Made by a program: the position numbers and the translations under genes
Shown here: piece by piece, positions 1 through 9,422 of the stretch
Position numbering within the stretch: the first letter of the stretch is position 1
How the letters are laid out: every line of letters starts with the position of its first letter
The notes under the pieces: generated by a model
Database searches by the model: none
Told to the model about the DNA's origin: nothing
The model's input: the letters and a program-made list of their open reading frames with translations, nothing else
Source of the DNA: a virus
Lineage: Duplodnaviria > Heunggongvirae > Uroviricota > Caudoviricetes
IMG/VR virus record: IMGVR_UViG_2554235187_000005
Length of the DNA stretch: 9,422 bases
Direction: 5' to 3' (one strand)

Positions 1-209
1 GCCTCTATGCTGTGTGCGTTGAAAATGGAAATATTGTTAGCCATTACCGCATTGTGTGTTTGCAAAAAAATGGGGCTGCGTTAATTAATTTTGTGGATGC
101 CCGAGTGACGGACGGATTTATCTTGCACGACGGTGAGTTTGTCACTTCATTACAGGCATTGAAAGAGATCGGAATAAAAGCTGGCTTTTCTGCTTTTGCA
201 GAAGAATAA
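1..209 (+). CDS. Hypothetical protein, 3' fragment (reading frame open to the left window edge)
   Basis: ORF in the frame of 12..209 stays open back to position 3; no recognisable family; stop TAA at 207-209. Confidence 0.3.
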   Translation, partial: LYAVCVENGNIVSHYRIVCLQKNGAALINFVDARVTDGFILHDGEFVTSLQALKEIGIKAGFSAFAEE

Positions 210-275
210 ACTCATCTACAATCTTGCGCGGGGCTGAACTCCCGCTGAGTAACACCGTGCCACCGGAGAAAACCG

Positions 276-554
276 ATGGCACGCAACGCAAAATATTACA
301 ATCATGATAATTCGACCGTTCTTGCCCACACGCACGAGCGGTATTCTCATGCATTTAAGTCAGACTGGTACCAGCATCCCCCATGCACTGAAGAACAGGC
401 CGAGTGGCTAATTCAGTGCTACCGCAGACACGGATACGAGATTAAGAAAGCCCTCAGCCTCGATTATCGTCACTGGATAATCTCCGTCAGGCTCCCTTAC
501 TCCGAACGGCCACCGCGTCCGTCCCGCACATTCCAGCAACGCATCTGGAGGTAA
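276..554 (+). CDS. Hypothetical small phage protein (92 aa)
   Basis: ATG at 276 preceded by GGAG at 265-268; its stop (552-554) abuts the GTG start of the next gene, suggesting translational coupling. Confidence 0.5.
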   Translation: MARNAKYYNHDNSTVLAHTHERYSHAFKSDWYQHPPCTEEQAEWLIQCYRRHGYEIKKALSLDYRHWIISVRLPYSERPPRPSRTFQQRIWR

Positions 555-555
555 C

Positions 556-1614
556 GTGCGGGTATTACTTCGACCTGTTCTGGTACCGGAACTTGGGCTG
601 GTGGTGCTAAAACCGGGCCGTGAATCCATGCCGGTATTCCACAATACCCGGGTACTGGTGGAGCCGGAACCGAAAAGCATGCGTAATCTGTCGTCCGGGG
701 TCGTTCCTGCCGTTCGCCAGCCGCTGGCGGAGGATAAATCATTACTGCCATTTTTCAGCGACGAACGAGTGATTCGTGCTGCTGGTGGCGCTGGCGCATT
801 GTCTGACTGGTTACTGCGCCATGTTAAATCCTGCCAGTGGCCACACGGCGATTATCACCACAGTGAAACCGTCATTCACCGTTATGGTACCGGCGCAATG
901 GTGTTGTGCTGGCACTGCGACAACCAGCTGCGCGACCAGACCTCCGAATCACTCGGGCAACTTGCTCACCAAAACCTGTCTGCATGGATGATTGACGTCA
1001 TACGCCATGCAATGAATGGCTCGCAGGAACGGGAATTATCGCTGGCTGAATTATCCTGGTGGGCGGTCCGCAATCAGGTGGCGGACGCGCTACCGGAAGC
1101 GGTATTACGTCGTTCGCTGGGGTTGCGTGCGGAAAAAATCCGCTCAATGTACCGTGAAAGCGACATCGTACCGGGAGAGCAGACCGCCACCAGCATACTG
1201 AAACAGCGCACAAAAAATCTTGCGCCGCTGCCTCACGCCCACCAGCAACAGAACCCACCACAGGAAAAGACGGTGGTCAGCATTGCCGTTGATCCGGAAT
1301 CTCCGGCTCAGTATCTCCAGCGCCAGAAACCACAACGGGAAGAGATGCCTGTATACACGCGCTGGGTAAAAACGCAGAAATGCATGACGTGTGGCAATCA
1401 GGCAGATGATCCGCATCACATCATTGGTCATGGACTGGGAGGGATGGGAACAAAGGCTGACGATTTGTTTGTTATTCCGCTGTGTCGTAAATGCCATAAC
1501 GAACTACACGCCGGGGTAAAAGATTTTGAAGAAAAACACGGTAGTCAGTTGTTGTTGCTGATTCGTTTTTTAATGCACGCGAGAAATTCGGGTGTTCTGA
1601 AGTGGAAAGCATAA
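556..1614 (+). CDS. DUF968-like prophage protein with C-terminal HNH-like zinc-finger motif (YdfU-like)
   Basis: 352-aa ORF with GTG start after GGAGG (546-550); C-terminal motif C-x2-C...HH...C-x2-C-H-x3-H (CMTCGNQADDPHHIIGHG...CRKCHNELH); sits directly upstream of rusA as in Qin/Rac-type prophages (recalled). Confidence 0.6.
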   Translation: MRVLLRPVLVPELGLVVLKPGRESMPVFHNTRVLVEPEPKSMRNLSSGVVPAVRQPLAEDKSLLPFFSDERVIRAAGGAGALSDWLLRHVKSCQWPHGDYHHSETVIHRYGTGAMVLCWHCDNQLRDQTSESLGQLAHQNLSAWMIDVIRHAMNGSQERELSLAELSWWAVRNQVADALPEAVLRRSLGLRAEKIRSMYRESDIVPGEQTATSILKQRTKNLAPLPHAHQQQNPPQEKTVVSIAVDPESPAQYLQRQKPQREEMPVYTRWVKTQKCMTCGNQADDPHHIIGHGLGGMGTKADDLFVIPLCRKCHNELHAGVKDFEEKHGSQLLLLIRFLMHARNSGVLKWKA

Positions 1615-1983
1615 ATGACCGAACGCATAGAATTTGTTTTGCCTTACTCGCCGACGGTGAACACTTACTGGCGACGCCGTGGCAGCACATATTTTGTATC
1701 AAAAGCCGGGGAGCGTTATCGCCGGGCAGTGGCGCTTATTGTTCGCCAGCAGCGACTGAAATTAAGCCTGTCCGGACGGCTGGCAATAAAAATTATTGCA
1801 GAGCCACCGGATAAGCGTCGTCGTGACCTGGACAATATTCTGAAAGCACCACTGGATGCGCTGACGCACGCGGGGTTGTTAATGGACGATGAGCAGTTTG
1901 ATGAAATCAATATTGTACGTGGCCAGCCAGTATCTGGTGGACGGCTGGAGATAAGAATTACAGAGGTGGGTGTGCATGAATAA
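1615..1983 (+). CDS. rusA: Holliday junction resolvase RusA
   Basis: 122-aa product with RusA family hallmarks (NTYWRRRG, DKRRRDLDNILKAPLDALTHAGLLMDDEQ, GGRLEIRITE); start ATG immediately follows upstream stop. Confidence 0.85.
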   Translation: MTERIEFVLPYSPTVNTYWRRRGSTYFVSKAGERYRRAVALIVRQQRLKLSLSGRLAIKIIAEPPDKRRRDLDNILKAPLDALTHAGLLMDDEQFDEINIVRGQPVSGGRLEIRITEVGVHE

Positions 1984-2665
1984 CCAGTATTTACAGTTTG
2001 TTCGTGAGCAACTCATGATTGCCACTGCAGATCTCAGTGGGTCGACAAAATGCCAGCTGGAAGCCTGGCAGGAAAATGCCCTGTTCGATACAGGGCGTTA
2101 CAGACGCAAAAAAATTCGTTACCGCGATGAGGTAACCGGAAAAATGATCACGCGGGATAATCCCCCGATCCAGGGTAAACAATCACTGGCGAAAGGCTCA
2201 TCAATTGCGCTGGTCAGTCCTGTTGAGTTTGCAACATCATCGTGGCGGCGTGCTGTTCTGGAACTGGAAGAACATCAGAAGGCGTGGTTGTTGTGGTGTT
2301 ATGGCGGAAACATTTGCTGGGAGCATCAGATCGCGATAACGCAGTGGGGGTGGAGTGAATTTAAAACTCAGTCCGGCTCCAGAAAAATTGCAGTGAAAAC
2401 GCTGGAGCGTGTGAAGAAGTTGATCTGGCTGGCGGCACAGGATGTCAGAGGATGGGTTACCGGGTGTGAGGTCTACCAGAGACAGGAGCTTGCCAGACTG
2501 TGTGGAGTTAAGCCTGATAACTGGAGCCATAATTATGCGAACTACTGGCGTGAGATGTGCGATATTTTTAAGCGCCTCGATAGAGAATCCTTGATTTGCT
2601 CCGTGAAAATAAGAGCGCAACAAAAAGCGACCTTTTCACGACGAGATATTGCAAAAGTCAATTAA
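1976..2665 (+). CDS. Late-gene antitermination protein Q-like (QuuQ-type size class)
   Basis: 229-aa ORF overlapping the rusA stop (ATG 1976; alternative GTG 1970); position between rusA and a strong intrinsic terminator upstream of the lysis genes is the canonical Q position; family assignment by recall only. Confidence 0.55.
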   Translation: MNNQYLQFVREQLMIATADLSGSTKCQLEAWQENALFDTGRYRRKKIRYRDEVTGKMITRDNPPIQGKQSLAKGSSIALVSPVEFATSSWRRAVLELEEHQKAWLLWCYGGNICWEHQIAITQWGWSEFKTQSGSRKIAVKTLERVKKLIWLAAQDVRGWVTGCEVYQRQELARLCGVKPDNWSHNYANYWREMCDIFKRLDRESLICSVKIRAQQKATFSRRDIAKVN

Positions 2666-2700
2666 ATCGCGTATGTTTCGTATAAATCTGATATTTTGCC
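2657..2700 (+). promoter_or_regulatory. Putative late promoter pR' / qut region
   Basis: Candidate -35 GTCAAT (2657-2662) and -10 TATAAA (2681-2686) with ~18-bp spacer, directly after Q and ~40 bp before the tR'-like terminator; hexamers are weak, position is the main argument. Confidence 0.3.
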
Positions 2701-2726
2701 GATTTTGTACGTGATGGCAAAGTAAG

Positions 2727-2754
2727 AAAAAACCACCGCCAGGTGGTTTTTTTT
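2727..2754 (+). terminator. Intrinsic terminator (tR'-like)
   Basis: Stem CCACC(2733-2737)/GGTGG(2742-2746), loop GCCA, flanked by an A-tract and followed by 8 T's (2747-2754). Confidence 0.65.
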
Positions 2755-2877
2755 ATGTCCGAAAATCGCGTCAGTACAGTAAACGCGCTGGTGGTTGCGA
2801 ATACGGGTCTTTCAGCTTGCCGGCTTTTTCGACAAGAGTTATTGGTATGTCACGTTAACCGGAAAAGGGAAAAAGAC

Positions 2878-3075
2878 ATGCTAAAACAGCAGGATATGAC
2901 AGAAGCCGCCAGAGTGGTGTTTAATGAATTAAGCGTTACCGACCCGGCGACAGTCAGGGAGATTGCACAGAATACTTACCTTTCACGCGAACGCTGCCAG
3001 TTAATACTGACCCAGCTTGTTATGGCGGGTCTGGCAGACTATCAGTTTGGTTGTTACAGACACCTTCAGTCCTGA
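2878..3075 (+). CDS. Hypothetical small protein (65 aa), possible HTH-like
   Basis: ATG 2878 preceded by AAGGGA; the longer in-frame GTG 2743/ATG 2755 starts lie inside the terminator T-tract with no SD; flanked by terminators on both sides. Confidence 0.4.
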   Translation: MLKQQDMTEAARVVFNELSVTDPATVREIAQNTYLSRERCQLILTQLVMAGLADYQFGCYRHLQS

Positions 3076-3089
3076 AGGCTTTTTTATTT
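3063..3089 (+). terminator. Intrinsic terminator
   Basis: Hairpin CCTTCAG/CTGAAGG (3063-3078) overlapping the stop codon, followed by CTTTTTTATTT. Confidence 0.5.
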
Positions 3090-3388
3090 GTGGTAAATGG
3101 GCGGCTGGTGGGTGTGGTGGTTGTTGCTTTCCCGTTGCTGAAAAAGAAAACGCCAGACTGTTAGCCGGGTATCAGTTAGCGGGAGAAATTTTTAAATACT
3201 TCACAATTCAGGCGGTTGACTGTTGTCTGGTTTGCGGGGAGTTTGTTAAAAGAAACTGGCATGGTGAATCCCCCTGTGCGGAGGGGCAATCAGCGAGTAG
3301 GTATATGGGATAATCGCGGATTCAGGTGCTGGTACTGAATTCACCGGGAGGCACCCGGCACCATGCAATGGCACATAGCGCCACTCTC

Positions 3389-3424
3389 CAGCCCCTCTCC
3401 GGAGGGGCTGTTTATATTGATTTT
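3389..3424. terminator. Strong GC-rich hairpin terminator (+ strand; also closes the convergent minus-strand ORF)
   Basis: 9-bp stem CAGCCCCTC/GAGGGGCTG with loop TCCG (3389-3410) followed by TTTATATTGATTTT. Confidence 0.6.
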
Positions 3425-3444
3425 GTCAGATGTGAGTAAACTCC

Positions 3445-3780
3445 TTATGGACTTTGTTGTTTTAGCCCATAAGGACATATTTGCAGAGTGCAACGGTTAT
3501 TAAAGCATTCATTCAATACGTTATCTGTATTTGTAGGGCATTCCTGGCTGTTTTTGATTAAATTCCAGAATGTTTTATTGAATGGTACTACGTTGTAAAT
3601 GGTTACAGGTAGCACTTTGTTATTGAGCATGATACCTGTGTGAGTCAGTGTAAATATACTTTCAGGAGGTAAGAAAGCATCCGATTGATACCAGATTATT
3701 AATTTTATTTTACTCCATATGACTGAAAAAGATATTCCGCATGATGGCTGGATAACTGTATCAATCACAATCCACTTCAT
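3445..3780 (-). CDS. Hypothetical protein (111 aa), Cys-containing, encoded on an AT-rich island
   Basis: Minus-strand ORF with SD AAGGAAA ~6 nt upstream of ATG (rc of 3781-3795); opposite orientation to the late operon; terminator hairpin just downstream of its stop. Confidence 0.5.
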
Positions 3781-3820
3781 TTAGTTTCCTTGTTTATGCC
3801 TTGCTGGTGATGTTCTGAAA

Positions 3821-3846
3821 AGTATAAATGATATTTTTGATTGTAA
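3821..3846 (-). promoter_or_regulatory. Putative sigma70-like promoter for the minus-strand moron gene
   Basis: On the minus strand, TTACAA (rc of 3841-3846) and TATACT (rc of 3821-3826) in an AT-rich tract upstream of the 3445..3780 ORF; spacing is short (~14 nt), so weak. Confidence 0.2.
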
Positions 3847-4040
3847 ACCATAGAGCAGAATTATTTTTCTGATGTTGTTTATTGTTTATTTAAATGCAGG
3901 GTGGTTTATATCTCGTCTTGTAGTTTATCCATGCATATCTGCTTGATGATGAGGTTTTTATTTAAGGTATGGTTTTGTGTTTTTTCTGTATTACATGTCA
4001 GGTATTTTAAAGAATCATTTTTCAGATGGTGGAAAGAACC

Positions 4041-4229
4041 ATGGCATTTAAACACTATGATGTTGTCAGGGCGGCGTCGCCGTCAGATCTTGCGGAAAAG
4101 CTGACACATAAACTGAAAGAGGGCTGGCAGCCGTTTGGTAGTCCGGTGGCCATAACCCCTTATACCCTGATGCAGGCGATTGCAGCAGAAGGTGATGTGG
4201 TGGTCAGTGGTGCAACTGAGCCGGAGTGA
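4041..4229 (+). CDS. Small conserved prophage protein found upstream of holins (DUF1737-like)
   Basis: ATG 4041 preceded by GGTGGAAAGA; 62-aa product MAFKHYDVVRAASPSDLAEKL...; family assignment by recall. Confidence 0.5.
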   Translation: MAFKHYDVVRAASPSDLAEKLTHKLKEGWQPFGSPVAITPYTLMQAIAAEGDVVVSGATEPE

Positions 4230-4536
4230 TACTACGTCATCGTACTGGCCCGGCATTCCAGGCCATAAAAGACGGTCTGGCAGTGGGACTAAATGCACTG
4301 ACGCTGACGGATATTACCAAAAATGCAACGTATGGCGTTGAGATAGAAAGTCTGGTGCTGGAGATAAATGCACCGGCATCATCATAAAAAGTGAGCCAGT
4401 CAAATGGAAGGTATCGTTAAACTCACCGGTAGTGTCAGTGGGTCGTCTGAGACGCCTGCATGAGTTATCAGAGCCATCAGTACTTAACTGGTGGCTTTTT
4501 TATTGTTGTCAGCTTCCGGATAACGGGAGACGGGGT

Positions 4537-4752
4537 ATGTACCAGATGGAAAAAATCACAACAGGTGTGTCATACACCACGTCAGCGGTGGGAACGGGCT
4601 ACTGGTTCCTGCAGTTGCTGGACAGGGTTTCCCCGTCTCAGTGGGCGGCAATAGGCGTGCTGGGGAGTCTGCTGTTTGGGCTGCTGACATATCTGACTAA
4701 CCTGTATTTCAAAATCAAAGAGGACCGGCGTAAGGCGGCGCGGGGAGAGTAA
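4537..4752 (+). CDS. S: Phage-21-type pinholin (class II holin) with dual-start motif
   Basis: 71-aa product [71 protein letters not shown] closely matches recalled S21 pinholin; Met1 and Met4 starts. Confidence 0.85.
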
Positions 4753-4756
4753 AGTG

Positions 4757-5647
4757 ATGAATAAAAAATATGAACTGGTTGTTAAGGGGATAAATAATTA
4801 CGGGGATAAGGTTACTGTTACTGTGAAGTCGGAAGGTGACGGGCAAGCGTCGCTGTTGTTGCCAGATGTGGCGATTAGTCTTGACCGTACTGAAGGTGCC
4901 ACGCTGGAGTTTTACGAAGCTGAGGCGAAAAAGCAGGCGAAGCAGTTTTTCATGGATGTTGCTGCCGGGTTATGTGAATGGAACGAACCGTTGCCGGAAA
5001 AGCGCCCCGTAATTTTAGAGGCGCAGGATGTGTTGATAACCTACAAAGGAAAGCTACCGGGAAGAATTACTTGTTCTCTGAAGATGCCGCCGTCAACACT
5101 GCGGTCAGAAAAAGATGATGTTGAATCACGTATTGAAAAACTGGAGAGCTACGTCGTTGAGCTGAATAAGAAATGGTCGATATTGGTGCCTTCTGGCGAT
5201 GAAAAGCAGTTTGCTGCGTTTGACGATTATTGTCGGAAAGTGATGAGCAGAAATCTCGCAGAGTGTTTCAGTATTCATAATGATAATTTCAGTGACCCGG
5301 AATGGGAGTGTAACCGGCCATCCTTTGTTGTATCCGGTGATGCTGGGAAAATAACCATCTCAGAAAATGGGAAAGTAACACCTCCATCGCACCAGCACAG
5401 TGAGGAGCTCATTGAATTTGCCATTGATTACCTGAAGAACAATAAAAAGCAGGGGCTGATGAAGCGCGTTGGCCGTTGCATGGGATATCTTCAGGTAGCC
5501 GCTGAGATTGAAGCGCTGGCCAGTGGTGCTGATAAGGATGCAATTGTGCGGGAGGCTCTTCTTCGTGATTTTAATACTCCACCCTTTAAAAAAGTGCCGG
5601 CTTACTGGCTTCATCCGGGGCTGACTTATCTTAAAGTGCGTATTTAG
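4757..5647 (+). CDS. Unknown-function protein (~296 aa) inserted between holin and endolysin
   Basis: ATG 4757 (GTG 4754) starts 2-5 nt after the holin stop with GGAGAG SD; long clean ORF, no TM segments, predicted coiled-coil-like stretch (DDVESRIEKLESYVVELNKKW); no family recognised. Confidence 0.7.
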   Translation: MNKKYELVVKGINNYGDKVTVTVKSEGDGQASLLLPDVAISLDRTEGATLEFYEAEAKKQAKQFFMDVAAGLCEWNEPLPEKRPVILEAQDVLITYKGKLPGRITCSLKMPPSTLRSEKDDVESRIEKLESYVVELNKKWSILVPSGDEKQFAAFDDYCRKVMSRNLAECFSIHNDNFSDPEWECNRPSFVVSGDAGKITISENGKVTPPSHQHSEELIEFAIDYLKNNKKQGLMKRVGRCMGYLQVAAEIEALASGADKDAIVREALLRDFNTPPFKKVPAYWLHPGLTYLKVRI

Positions 5648-5683
5648 TGGGCCAGGGACAGCGGCTGAATATTTAATATATCC

Positions 5684-6217
5684 ATGAACACCAAAATCAA
5701 ATACGGCCTGTCGGCTGCCGTTCTGGCGCTGATTGCCGCTGGTGCGCCTGCGCCTGACATTCTCGACCAGTTTCTGGATGAAAAGGAAGGCAACCACACC
5801 ACGGCATACCGTGATGGTGCAGGTATCTGGACCATCTGCCGTGGTGCCATCATGGTGGATGGCAAACCTGTCGTTCCGGGCATGAAGTTGTCGAAGGAAA
5901 AATGCGACCAGGTTAACGCCATTGAGCGTGATAAAGCGCTGGCGTGGGTGGAGAAAAACATCAGAGTGCCGCTGACCGAACCCCAGAAAGCGGGGATCGC
6001 GTCATTCTGTCCGTACAACATTGGTCCCGGTAAGTGTTTCCCGTCGACGTTTTACAGACGAATTAATGCTGGTGATCGAAAAGGTGCCTGCGAAGCGATT
6101 CGCTGGTGGATTAAGGACGGTGGCAGAGACTGCCGTATTCGTTCAAACAACTGTTACGGTCAGGTATCCCGTCGTGACCAGGAGAGCGCGCTGGCGTGCT
6201 GGGGTATCGACAGATAA
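5684..6217 (+). CDS. R: SAR endolysin (T4-lysozyme-like, R21-type)
   Basis: N-terminal Gly/Ala-rich weakly hydrophobic SAR segment (GLSAAVLALIAAGAPAP) followed by an E-x8-D-x5-T catalytic triad (EGNHTTAYRDGAGIWT). Confidence 0.85.
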   Translation: MNTKIKYGLSAAVLALIAAGAPAPDILDQFLDEKEGNHTTAYRDGAGIWTICRGAIMVDGKPVVPGMKLSKEKCDQVNAIERDKALAWVEKNIRVPLTEPQKAGIASFCPYNIGPGKCFPSTFYRRINAGDRKGACEAIRWWIKDGGRDCRIRSNNCYGQVSRRDQESALACWGIDR

Positions 6218-6305
6218 GCAGAATATTTTGCTGAAAAATGAGGAATGGCCACGCGGGCGGATAACACGAAATCCTGCGAACTGGCGAAACGTAAGTGAAT
6301 AAAAG

Positions 6306-6350
6306 TAAAAACCCCGTTTGTTGGCACCAAGCGAGGTTTTGTGTTTCTGA
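6306..6350 (+). terminator. Terminator-like structured element after the endolysin gene
   Basis: Imperfect stem AAAACCCCG/CGAGGTTTT enclosing a mini-hairpin TTGG-CA-CCAA, followed by a T-rich GTGTTTCTG; weak. Confidence 0.25.
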
Positions 6351-6373
6351 CCTTGAGTAAGGCAAGGGAGAAC

Positions 6374-6556
6374 ATGGCGAAGTGTAAACGAATTCTGTTG
6401 AGGTTGACTATGAAAAATGGCCTTGAACTGAAAGCGCCTGTAACTGATGACATCAGCAGAGCACTGGCTTTTGCCATTAAGTGGGTGGCGGTCGGTGTTG
6501 CTGTGTCCCCGATGCTGTATGGGCTGGCAAAACTGGTCATTGCGTTGAAATCGTGA
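6374..6556 (+). CDS. Small membrane protein (60 aa, C-terminal TM helix)
   Basis: ATG 6374 preceded by AAGGGAG; C-terminal hydrophobic segment [27 protein letters not shown]. Confidence 0.5.
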
Positions 6557-6570
6557 AGGGAGGATTAAGC

Positions 6571-6702
6571 ATGTCAGACAAACTCATAACGCTGGCGAAG
6601 ATCCTCTGTGTAATTGTCGGCATTTCATTTTCACTAATGCTGGTTGCTCTTTTTCTTTCCATGGCCTGGATGATGTTGTCTTCGTCGGGGTTGCTGGGGT
6701 GA
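6571..6702 (+). CDS. Small membrane protein (43 aa, single TM helix)
   Basis: ATG 6571 preceded by strong SD GAAGGGAGGA; hydrophobic core [26 protein letters not shown]; stop overlaps the Rz start. Confidence 0.45.
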
Positions 6703-7172
6703 ACATAAACCGAATGCTTTCCGCGTTTATCGTTATTCTGCTGGTGGCCTGTGGTGCGCTGTGGATGGCAACAGACCATTACCGTGATAACGCGATTACC
6801 TACAAAGCGCAGCGCGATAACAAAGCCAGTGAACTGAAGCTGGCGAACGCAACCATTACTGATATGCAGGTGCGCCAGCGCGATGTTGCTGCGCTCGATG
6901 CAAAATACTCGAGGGAATTAGCCGATGCGAGAGCTGAAAATGAAACTCTTCGCGCTGACGTTGCCGCTGGTCGTAAGCGCCTGCGGATCAACGCCACCTG
7001 TCCAGGCTCCGTGCGTGAAGCCCCCACCACCTCCGGCGTGGATAATGCAACCGGCCCCCAACTGGCAGACACCGTTACACGGGATTATTTCACCCTCAGA
7101 GAGCGGCTGATGACGATGCACAAGCAACTGGAAGGGGCACAGGACTATATCCGCACTCAGTGCCTGAAATAA
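6699..7172 (+). CDS. Rz: Rz i-spanin
   Basis: Near-identity to recalled lambda Rz over most of its length ([14 protein letters not shown]..., DYFTLRERL...); N-terminal TM; GTG start at 6699, alternative ATG at 6714. Confidence 0.9.
6940..7110 (+). CDS. Rz1: Rz1 o-spanin lipoprotein embedded in Rz (+1 frame)
   Basis: [15 protein letters not shown] lipobox followed by proline-rich mature region (PPPPPAW); fully nested inside Rz as in lambda; alternative upstream ATG 6925. Confidence 0.8.
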
Positions 7173-7482
7173 GTTTTGTTGATGCGCCGTATCGTCGCTA
7201 TATTCCCTCATTAACAGAGACCGCAGCCCGACAGGGAGACTCCTCTGCGCGAGTGTGCGGGGATAATTAAAAACGATGCACACCGGGTTTTTACCGCGTT
7301 AATGATTCGCGGGTTTATCCCGGTGCGATGGTGGAAGAAACAGGAAGCTGTATTACAGAAAGTGCTACTACTGTATCCCGATGCGATGTATGTAATGTGA
7401 GTCAGATAATGGCACAGGATGTGGTGATGTGGCAGTCTGGAACACAGGATATATTGTCAGAATAAGACCCGTAGGAATAAAA

Positions 7483-7809
7483 ATGAAAAGACGCCTTTTA
7501 CTACTTTTTCTGTTATCTGTCCTGGCAGTGGGATGCTCGCAGCAAAAAGCTGATGAGCCCCGGCAATTAGTGACGGTGTATCCACGATATCCGGAATATG
7601 CTGCAGCAAATTATATCAAGGGGCTGGTTGAGGTTAAGTTCGATATTGGTGCTGATGGGACTGTGACACGGATCGTTTTTCTCCGCTCAGAGCCTCATAA
7701 TTTGTTTCGTGATGAAGTGGTGAAGGCCATGGCGAAATGGCGATTTGAAAAGAATCGCCCCTGTCAGGGAGTGAAGAGACAATTTATCTTTACGCCGTCA
7801 CGTCCTTGA
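7483..7809 (+). CDS. Lipoprotein with TonB C-terminal-like domain (phage moron)
   Basis: SD AGGA 6 nt before ATG; signal peptide plus lipobox LAVGC; mature part matches the TonB-CTD pattern (YPxYPxxA...G-V-V-KFDI--DGTV--I--L-S-P---F--EV--AM--WRF). Confidence 0.6.
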   Translation: MKRRLLLLFLLSVLAVGCSQQKADEPRQLVTVYPRYPEYAAANYIKGLVEVKFDIGADGTVTRIVFLRSEPHNLFRDEVVKAMAKWRFEKNRPCQGVKRQFIFTPSRP

Positions 7810-7901
7810 TGCTTCCAGGTAGAGAGGGGCTGGACGCAGGAGAAAAATGAAAGAGCCAGCGGTTATATTTTTGTCATGGCTGACGAGGAATGATGGAAGA
7901 A

Positions 7902-7950
7902 GGCGTTGTATGCCACACAACGCCTCACTGTTCATTTCTTCTTTTTCTCT
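7902..7950. terminator. Bidirectional terminator between convergent genes
   Basis: Hairpin GGCGTTGT/ACAACGCC (7902-7924) followed on + by a T-rich TCACTGTTCATTTCTTCTTTTTCTC. Confidence 0.45.
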
Positions 7951-8111
7951 GGTGGAACCCGATGAATAAGAGTTGCACTGGTTTCCGATGAGATGGCGAT
8001 ATACTCGGGCAAAGTATGCTGGCAGTTTTCCAACTGGTCAAAAATACCTGCTCTCGTCTGTTGCAATGCCTGCAGCATGCGGCGGCAATGCGCCTTGCTT
8101 TTACTAACCAT
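7932..8111 (-). CDS. Hypothetical small protein (59 aa; in-frame extension possible to 8285)
   Basis: Minus-strand ATG (rc of 8109-8111) preceded by strong SD AGGAAGGA; the longer 117-aa version overlaps the adjacent ORF; C-terminal KKKK is encoded by the terminator T-tract, which is suspicious. Confidence 0.3.
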   Translation of the reverse strand: MVSKSKAHCRRMLQALQQTRAGIFDQLENCQHTLPEYIAISSETSATLIHRVPPEKKKK

Positions 8112-8172
8112 CTTTCCTTCCTCTATCAGTCGCTGCGTGAACTCATCATGTAATACCAGGTAAATGCGGATG

Positions 8173-8424
8173 TTATCGGTTTTGGCTACGCAGCATAGTA
8201 CAAAACGGACAGGTGCATCCCGGGACGGGGGAGGCGTCACATGTCCCTGTGATGGTTGTTCCGGGTAATGCACTGTGTGGGGCATAAAAATGTCCGATAA
8301 TTTTACTTTCTACCGCAGTTAGTTGATTCGTTGGTCCTGGTAGCACATTGGGCGAGGATTTAAATGCCAGGCAACTGAAGGATGATGTTGCAAGGGAGAT
8401 AGCGAGAATATTTCTGATTTTCAT
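8173..8424 (-). CDS. Small secreted Cys-rich protein (83 aa, predicted signal peptide)
   Basis: Minus-strand ATG (rc of 8422-8424) with SD AGAGG; N-terminal MKIRNILAISLATSSFSCLA signal-peptide-like; 5 Cys in the mature part. Confidence 0.4.
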   Translation of the reverse strand: MKIRNILAISLATSSFSCLAFKSSPNVLPGPTNQLTAVESKIIGHFYAPHSALPGTTITGTCDASPVPGCTCPFCTMLRSQNR

Positions 8425-8572
8425 TTGATGATGCCTCTGTGTGAAATGACGGTAAACGACGCACTTGTGCCGGCACATAATAGCAAGCACCATAATAGAT
8501 CAGATTCGATTCTTGCTGTAAGTGATAATTATTCTCGTTTTCGGGTCCTTTCCGTCGATCCAACAGGTTACG

Positions 8573-8584
8573 GGGCGGCGACCT
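8573..8584. other. cosN cohesive-end site (GGGCGGCGACCT)
   Basis: Exact match to the recalled 12-nt lambda cohesive end, preceded by ...CAGGTTACG and followed by CGCGGGTTTTCGCTATTTATGAAAATTTTCCGG as at the lambda left end; ~190 bp upstream of Nu1. Confidence 0.85.
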
Positions 8585-8620
8585 CGCGGGTTTTCGCTAT
8601 TTATGAAAATTTTCCGGGGA

Positions 8621-8736
8621 AAATCATGTCGGTACTTCTCGAACATAACTATTTGTTTTTTCTAATATCGAATCCGTAAAAGGTCCGACATGAAAACGCC
8701 TAAAAAAGTCATTTTCGGGCACTTTCATGTCGGCCC
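8621..8736. repeat. cosB-like terminase-binding repeats (3 copies of TCATGTCGG, the middle one inverted)
   Basis: TCATGTCGG at 8624-8632 and 8725-8733 (direct), CCGACATGA at 8685-8693 (inverted); the R3/R2/R1 arrangement mirrors lambda cosB, but the repeat sequence differs from lambda. Confidence 0.5.
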
Positions 8737-8760
8737 CTGTATTTATTGTGAGACTGTTTC

Positions 8761-9306
8761 ATGAAGGTTAATAAAAAGAAACTTGCCGAAATTTTCAACG
8801 TGGATCCGCGAACGATTGAACGCTGGCAGTCTCAGGGACTCCCTTGCGTCTCCGGAGGTGGTAAGGGCGTTGAATCTGTATTTGATACCGCCATGGCAAT
8901 TCAGTGGTATGCGCAGAGGGAAGCTGATATCGAAAATGAAAAACTCCGTAAAGAGGTTGAGGATTACAGGGCTGCCAGTGAGGCAGATCTCCAGCCTGGG
9001 ACTATTGAGTACGAACGCCATCGACTTACGCGTGCGCAGGCCGACGCACAGGAGCTGAAAAATGCCAGAGACTCCGCTGAAGTGGTGGAAACCGCATTCT
9101 GTACTTTCGTGCTGTCACGGATCGCAGGTGAAATTGCCAGTATTCTTGACGGGATCCCTCTCTCGGTACAGCGGCGTTTTCCGGAACTGGAAAACCGACA
9201 TGTTGATTTCCTGAAACGGGATATCATCAAAGCCATGAACAAAGCAGCCGCGCTGGATGAACTGATACCGGGGTTGCTGAGTGAATATATCGAACAGTCA
9301 GATTGA
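8761..9306 (+). CDS. nu1: Terminase small subunit Nu1
   Basis: 181-aa product near-identical to recalled lambda gpNu1 from ~residue 60 onward; N-terminal wHTH region diverged ([30 protein letters not shown]...). Confidence 0.9.
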
Positions 9307-9422
9307 TATTCTGCGGCGTGATGTACGCGCCGGGCTGCGAGCCCTGTTCAGGCCGGAGCCACAGACTGCCGTTGAATGGGCGGATGCCAGTTACTATCTC
9401 CCGAAAGAATCCGCATACCAGG
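9281..9422 (+). CDS. A: Terminase large subunit A (5' fragment, runs off window end)
   Basis: Start overlaps the Nu1 3' end by 26 nt as in lambda; translation (M/V)[46 protein letters not shown] matches the recalled gpA N-terminus. Confidence 0.85.

Follow-up and report, generated by a model that had tools for sequence, protein, structure and literature searches.

A packaging signal that begins exactly like that of phage lambda and then continues with a different set of repeats raises the question of which terminase it is built for. Such a site lies towards the right-hand end of the window, by which we mean the whole 9,422-bp stretch of DNA analysed here. An earlier note on this DNA had regarded the repeats as a non-lambda cosB set, and the locus as a swap of packaging specificity with the nicking site kept. 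The evidence described below makes it very probable that positions 8542-8760 are the cos site of a lambda-like Escherichia coli prophage with a cosB of the phage 21 packaging-specificity type, and that the locus is a natural 21/lambda mosaic. The elements of the site, in window coordinates, are as follows.

8542-8553, plus strand: R4 box/cosQ region, to the left of the nick; identical to the feature 'R4 (R box)' at 136-147 of M81255
8573-8584, plus strand: cosN cohesive-end sequence GGGCGGCGACCT, the same as bp 1-12 of lambda and phage 21
8585-8621, plus strand: I2 spacer from cosN to cosB; the 'IHF I2 site' of M81255 (196-210) corresponds approximately to 8602-8616
8622-8637, plus strand: R3 box AATCATGTCGGTACTT (cos bp 50-65), 15/16 against phage 21 AATCGTGTCGGTACTT, positioned as R3 in OL657228
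8646-8658, minus strand: predicted IHF site I1 AAACAAATAGTTA, a consensus match with one mismatch to WATCAANNNNTTR, at the position of the annotated I1 in phage 21 (74-86)
8680-8695, minus strand: R2 box TTTCATGTCGGACCTT, inverted, 16/16 against the annotated phage 21 R2
8723-8739, plus strand: R1 box TTTCATGTCGGCCCCTG; its 11-nt core equals that of phage 21 R1 TTTCATGTCGGGCCTTG (150-166), with two differences in the flanks

The cohesive end and its flanks

The ends of linear phage records would place the top-strand nick between 8572 and 8573, as window position 8573 corresponds to the first base of the linear records of lambda, phage 21 and others, and the Perceval record ends at 8572. Starting from this base, lambda (NC_001416, bp 1-45) and the window (8573-8617) share a gapless identical prefix of exactly 45 bp, made up of cosN and 33 further bp. 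The lambda match described in the earlier note, across the 12-nt cohesive end and about 45 bp, is confirmed. For phage 21 the gapless identical prefix is 17 bp. Calling 8573-8617 lambda-identical needs a caveat, because lambda and 21 can be distinguished there at 4 of the 45 positions only (cos bp 18, 24, 42 and 44). All four of these informative sites, which fall within 8590-8616, are of the lambda type.

The left flank has a different affinity. Over the 166 bp to the left of cosN the window is 100% identical to phage 21 (M81255), with 103 gapless mismatches against lambda. Inside the R4 box/cosQ region we find GGGTCCT at 8543-8549, a 7-bp element that we take, from the lambda literature, to be cosQ. 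The sequence GGGTCC TTTCC (GGGTCCTTTCC) to the left of the nick is common to the window and lambda, and a conserved cosQ/R4 element some 20-30 bp left of the nick is a hallmark of a lambda-like cos with a complex cosB. The 7-bp cosQ has been described as highly conserved, cosQ and cosN are reported to be common to lambda and 21, and termination of packaging needs I2 together with cosQ and cosN (PMC4669245).

The repeats align with the R boxes of phage 21

Exact copies of TCATGTCGG occur three times in the 9,422-bp window, at 8624-8632 (+), 8685-8693 (-) and 8725-8733 (+), confirming the direct, inverted, direct arrangement described previously. The mean number expected by chance is 0.06, and 0 of 200 dinucleotide-preserving shuffles reached three. 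When one mismatch was allowed, four copies were found across the whole window against 2.17 expected, which is not significant, so the repeat signal consists of the three exact, clustered copies. The repeats extend past 9 nt, with 14-nt arms of 86% complementarity for R3/R2 and 30-nt arms of 77% around R2/R1.

When 8400-9000 was searched by megablast against phage records, the matches, at 86-92% identity, were to phage 21 (M81255, X02501 and OL657228) and to 21-like phages. Of the phage 21 records, M81255 and OL657228 carry curated cos features. The annotated phage 21 layout runs from R4, left of the nick, through cosN and I2 to R3 (bp 50-65), the IHF site I1 (bp 74-86), the inverted R2 (bp 107-122) and R1 (bp 150-166), and the three repeats of the window align exactly onto the annotated R3, R2 and R1. 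The R3-to-R2 spacing is 61 bp in the window versus 60 bp in phage 21, and R2 to R1 is 40 bp in both. The three boxes share the core CATGTCGG. The arrangement has the features of a lambda-like complex cosB: of its three R boxes, R3 (at about bp 50-65) and R1 have one orientation and R2 the opposite one, and I1 lies between R3 and R2. In an alignment of six sequences that included PhiR5_1, itself 75.6% identical over window 8508-8996, the R cores are conserved and the spacers have diverged. Within R3, bp 56 and bp 59 are both G, as in phage 21, whereas lambda has T and C; bp 54 is A in the window and G in phage 21.

On this alignment the three repeats are the well-characterised terminase-binding R3, R2 and R1 boxes of phage 21, lying beside a matching 21-type small terminase. 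The implied view that they form a new repeat set does not survive, since they fall on the R3, R2 and R1 of phage 21 (M81255, OL657228) and are accompanied by a 21-type DNA-binding domain. The outcome that the earlier note had named as counting against its own reading, an already characterised cosB such as that of phage 21 with a matching Nu1, is what the alignment returned.

A small terminase with 21-like and lambda-like parts

Two terminase genes follow the cos site.

8761-9306, plus strand: small terminase gene (TerS, Nu1/gp1 family), 181 aa; Pfam Phage_Nu1 PF07471, E = 6.9e-91, full length
9281-9422, plus strand, running off the window end: 5' end of the large terminase gene (TerL, gpA family), with a GTG start

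The match to the Phage_Nu1 profile scores 302.6 bits against a cutoff of 30 and covers profile positions 1-164 of 164. The best PDB match for the N-terminal domain is 7lwr, whose sequence is that of phage 21 TerS residues 1-54; the window differs from it at five residues (K7R, V30A, G32K, G34S and V37I) and retains K35. At the level of sequence, the 7lwr match together with Pfam settles the family membership of the small terminase. Over residues 1-68 the protein shares 88% identity with phage 21 gp1 and 60% with lambda Nu1, the identity of the N-terminal domain to lambda being 56-60%. Over residues 73-181 the figures are 98% for lambda and 50% for 21. The N-terminus of the large terminase follows the same pattern, matching lambda gpA at 40/47 residues versus 17/47 for phage 21 gp2. 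As judged from these identities the small terminase is a natural 21/lambda chimera, 21-like over codons 1 to ~64 and lambda-like from ~73 to 181. The informative sites place the switch between nt 8952 and 8976, or about codons 65-72. The 21-like part is the winged helix-turn-helix domain, and the lambda-like part serves oligomerisation and large-terminase binding.

Residues 8-29 are identical to phage 21 and include the recognition helix, RTIERWQS at 17-24. Two residues in this helix discriminate between the phages, and the window has the 21-type E20 and S24 where lambda has Q20 and E24. In the wing the window reads GGGKG versus KGSKG in 21, and four residues differ there (V30A, G32K, G34S and V37I). 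According to work of the Feiss laboratory (PMC4669245, PMC9026076), discrimination between lambda and 21 is determined by residues 20 and 24 of the small terminase together with bp 56 and 59 of R3. The window thus carries the marks of the phage 21 group, namely 21-type R boxes (G at bp 56 and bp 59) and a 21-type recognition helix (E20, S24), and we assign 21 specificity because all four known determinants are of the 21 type.

A natural mosaic with two breakpoints

Mapping the positions at which lambda and 21 differ divides the locus to the right of cosN into three segments.

8590-8616: lambda-type, at 4 informative sites
8618-8952: 21-like, ~90% identical, in long runs with scattered exceptions
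8976-9422: lambda-like, in long runs with informative sites up to 9420, taking in the C-terminal domain of the small terminase and the first part of the large terminase

The type changes at 8617/8618 and again somewhere from 8952 to 8976, giving two breakpoints. On this mapping the locus is a natural mosaic of a 21-like DNA-recognition module, comprising cosB and small terminase codons 1 to ~64, and a lambda-like assembly module, comprising the small terminase C-terminus and the large terminase. One joint falls at the border between cosN-I2 and cosB (8617/8618) and the other in the central, conserved part of the small terminase gene; it would follow that the R boxes and the recognition helix were inherited intact as one pair, and the small terminase C-terminus and large terminase as another.

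Compared with phage 21, the window has the same cosQ-cosN-I2-cosB (R3-I1-R2-R1) architecture, positions and orientations, and the same R cores, I1, recognition helix and specificity determinants. It differs in its four lambda-type bases in cosN/I2, in the A rather than G at R3 bp 54, in the ~10% divergence of the block made up of cosB and the 5' part of the small terminase gene, in one extra A between I1 and R2, and in the C-terminal 110 residues of the small terminase and the large terminase, which are lambda-type and not 21-type. With lambda it shares cosN and 33 bp and the general R3-I1-R2-R1 layout; the C-terminal domain of the small terminase is 98% identical, and the N-terminus of the large terminase is lambda-like. 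The R boxes in lambda, in contrast, are of the CGTTTCC type, bp 56 and 59 differ, and the helix has Q20/E24 where the window has E20/S24.

A close parallel to this combination is found among the lambda-21 hybrids (lambda 21hy51, 21hy33; Frackman/Feiss), which likewise join a 21 cosB and the DNA-binding end of the 21 small terminase to the lambda C-terminal part and lambda large terminase. Laboratory lambda-21 hybrids have served to map terminase domains since 1985, and a hybrid in which a chimeric small terminase joins the 21 DNA-binding domain to the C-terminal half of lambda is reported to be viable and 21-specific (PMC4669245, PMC9026076). Prophage constructs combining lambda cosQ and lambda cosN with a 21 cosB have already been built and assayed (PMC4669245). 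Unlike these hybrids, the window represents a natural lineage and does not stem from a recent cross of lambda with 21. Its crossover is placed around codons 65-72, and the hybrid is described as having a 21-derived left end of ~600 bp (PMC4669245).

An exchangeable module beyond position 8617

In several E. coli prophages, for example that of strain 7/2, the match to window 1-8618 has a single mismatch, and the sequences diverge completely beyond it. Downstream of 8618 these sibling prophages carry a different cosB, with three copies of CATGTCCGG, and a different small terminase of 169 aa. The same alternative cosB/169-aa small terminase module is present in PhiR12 phages. PhiR47_2 matches 8400-8617 at 100% and the match then ends. 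Since the siblings and PhiR47_2 stop matching at this point, one recombination joint sits precisely where the conserved cosN-I2 block ends. In these comparisons cosB and the DNA-binding end of the small terminase behave as an exchangeable specificity module. This also determines how much of the proposed swap can be kept. A lambda-type cosN/I2 joined to a non-lambda cosB stands, as does exchange of the module, given that siblings switch at 8618; the novelty of the repeat set does not, as it had already been characterised as that of phage 21.

In E. coli 7/2 (NZ_CP023820, 11618-12277; L008) the CATGTCCGG copies lie at cos bp 50 (+), 110 (-) and 140 (-), and the orientation of R1 in this alternative cosB appears unlike the lambda/21 layout.

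Occurrence and prophage context

At least 80% of 8573-8760 is present in 554 of 5426 complete E. coli genomes. Part of this interval is matched in 4440 genomes, and the matches that we sampled down the ranking mostly cover the first 45-46 bp alone; the lambda-type cosN-I2 segment therefore appears to be common to many lambdoid prophages with different cosBs. A prophage of E. coli MZ1211 differs from the window by 4 mismatches, and full-length matches at a reported 100.0% come from two further records. The late region encodes hokD, rem, DUF968, rusA, Q, iraM, holin, lysozyme and Rz, then the small terminase, large terminase and head genes. In the genome with 4 mismatches to the window the large terminase gene has a full length of 1926 bp and is followed by head genes. 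In IdasGreatGrand, an isolated phage, the small terminase is identical to that of the window and the cos site is 98.5% identical. IdasGreatGrand forms plaques with the same cos and small terminase, which argues that the combination is functional.

A scan of IMG/VR for the 21-type R3 returned at least 120 contigs, and 105 of those listed were long enough to score. The haplotype of the window (G, G, C and G in I2; R3 TCATGTCGG; a 181-aa small terminase with a lambda C-terminus) was found in at least 38 of the 105. The true-21 haplotype (T, A, T and A in I2; R3 TCGTGTCGG; a 182-aa small terminase with a 21 C-terminus) was found in at least about 55. These two linked haplotypes dominate among the IMG/VR matches listed. 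Across the 21-type cos sites of the listed contigs the R3-to-R2 spacing varies by 1-3 bp, in A/T runs (window 8677-8680), with R2 starting at bp 111-114 and R2-to-R1 constant at 40 bp. At least 13 of the 105 scored contigs join a 21-type cosB to a different cohesive end, GGGCGGAAGGCG, with bp 7-12 changed, and one further scored contig has the cohesive end GGGCGGGAGCGT.

Among GTDB species-representative genomes the exact I2-R3 junction gave 0 matches, and exact 21-type cores were not seen in either of the two pattern scans of this set. A looser R3-R2-R1 pattern gave two matches there, in a Treponema MAG and a Pseudomonadota MAG; both are without cosN or a small terminase gene and were set aside as chance or unrelated repeats. 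The Treponema MAG (JAITIX010000046, L013, ~3700-3860) contains a dense array of direct and inverted CTTCATGTCGGCAAAAG-like units, with no cosN or small terminase gene nearby.

Several further features of the window and related records were observed. An Rfam match to the sRNA STnc100 lies at 3230-3419 (+), scoring 132 bits against a gathering score of 47, directly upstream of, and convergent with, an iraM-like anti-adapter gene at 3445-3780 (-). In the lysis region, window ~4041-5092, the DUF1737 and YdfR-family genes are partial pseudogenes according to RefSeq in the genome with 4 mismatches to the window (7041-8092 in L007). The IdasGreatGrand record has a 'hypothetical protein' CDS at L005 8860-9138 that runs across cosN (cos at L005 9032) and is probably spurious, and its large terminase is annotated as two CDSs. 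The record of phage ev017 (LR597643.1, L011, positions 1-90) opens with poly-T and Illumina Nextera adapter/index sequence (CAAGCAGAAGACGGCATACGAGAT...AGATGTGTATAAGAGACAG) preceding the phage sequence, and the true cos end is truncated.

Alternative readings of the site

Could the site be a relic in a decaying prophage, no longer packaged and conserved merely through recent insertion? The late region does resemble that of cryptic Qin/Rac-type prophages (hokD, rem, DUF968 and rusA), and the copy that bears the partial YdfR-family and DUF1737 pseudogenes may be decaying and not fully functional. However, the cos elements (cosQ/R4, cosN, I2, R3, I1, R2 and R1) are intact, as are the two terminase genes, and head genes then follow, and the same cos and small terminase are found in an isolated phage. 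The relic reading also bears on one prophage copy and not on what the element is, and we consider it unlikely. Lambda-like cosQ and cosN next to a non-lambda cosB are equally a feature of the cos sites of PICIs (PMC6739421), which hijack the terminase of a helper via an Rpp protein. Those sites are described as having no repeated R sequences and as being followed by rpp (PMC9026076, PMC6739421), whereas the window has three R boxes together with a full-length 181-aa Phage_Nu1 protein and a large terminase, within a prophage late operon; the gene content contradicts a PICI origin, to which we attach next to no weight. The same holds for the proposal that the repeats are chance matches, or part of a coding ORF at 8425-8679 (+, 84 aa), with no packaging role. 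A mechanical ORF does span the site, and in IdasGreatGrand a hypothetical CDS crosses cos. Yet three exact copies stand against 0.06 expected, their positions and orientations are conserved across diverged phages, and cleavage at cos would cut the ORF, so that both the statistics and the conservation pattern contradict this explanation.

A further question is whether the repeats specify packaging distinct from that of both lambda and 21. The segment is ~10% diverged from 21, R3 bp 54 differs, the wing reads GGGKG where 21 has KGSKG, the R3-R2 spacing is 1 bp longer, and the variant is a discrete, common haplotype. Against this, the recognition helix and the R-box cores are identical to those of 21 (R2 at 16/16), and the discriminating bp 56 and 59 and residues 20 and 24 are all 21-type. 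The A at R3 bp 54 merely matches the R2/R1 core that 21 itself uses, and variation of 1-3 bp in the spacing is also seen among true 21-type contigs. We judge a distinct specificity to be highly improbable. It is also improbable, in our estimation, that the widespread haplotype of the window (lambda-type I2, A at R3 bp 54, GGGKG wing and lambda-type C-terminus) is a sub-specificity that has drifted from phage 21. Were this so, its terminase would package phage 21 DNA poorly, or its DNA would be packaged poorly by the 21 terminase, and the haplotype would provide a natural intermediate for the study of cosB/small terminase co-evolution.

A proposed model for packaging and its implications

For a cos site of 21 specificity in a 21/lambda mosaic, a mechanism can be proposed from the lambda/21 paradigm. 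R1 would add a third contact. The lambda-like large terminase would be anchored and held via the lambda-like C-terminal half of the small terminase, and by analogy would nick cosN 12 nt apart, cutting the top strand at 8572/8573, to leave 12-nt 5' ends starting at 8573. After nicking, the DNA would be translocated rightwards. cosQ, cosN and I2 would act in termination, independently of the type of cosB. Two co-adapted pairs would be kept together in such a scheme, the R boxes with the recognition helix, and the small terminase C-terminus with the large terminase N-terminus.

The element is thus already known, an ordinary and common packaging signal in a common prophage lineage. Its value is modest, as a natural example of terminase modularity. 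A cos site of the 21 type also predicts which helper phages or PICIs would be able to mobilise the DNA of this prophage.
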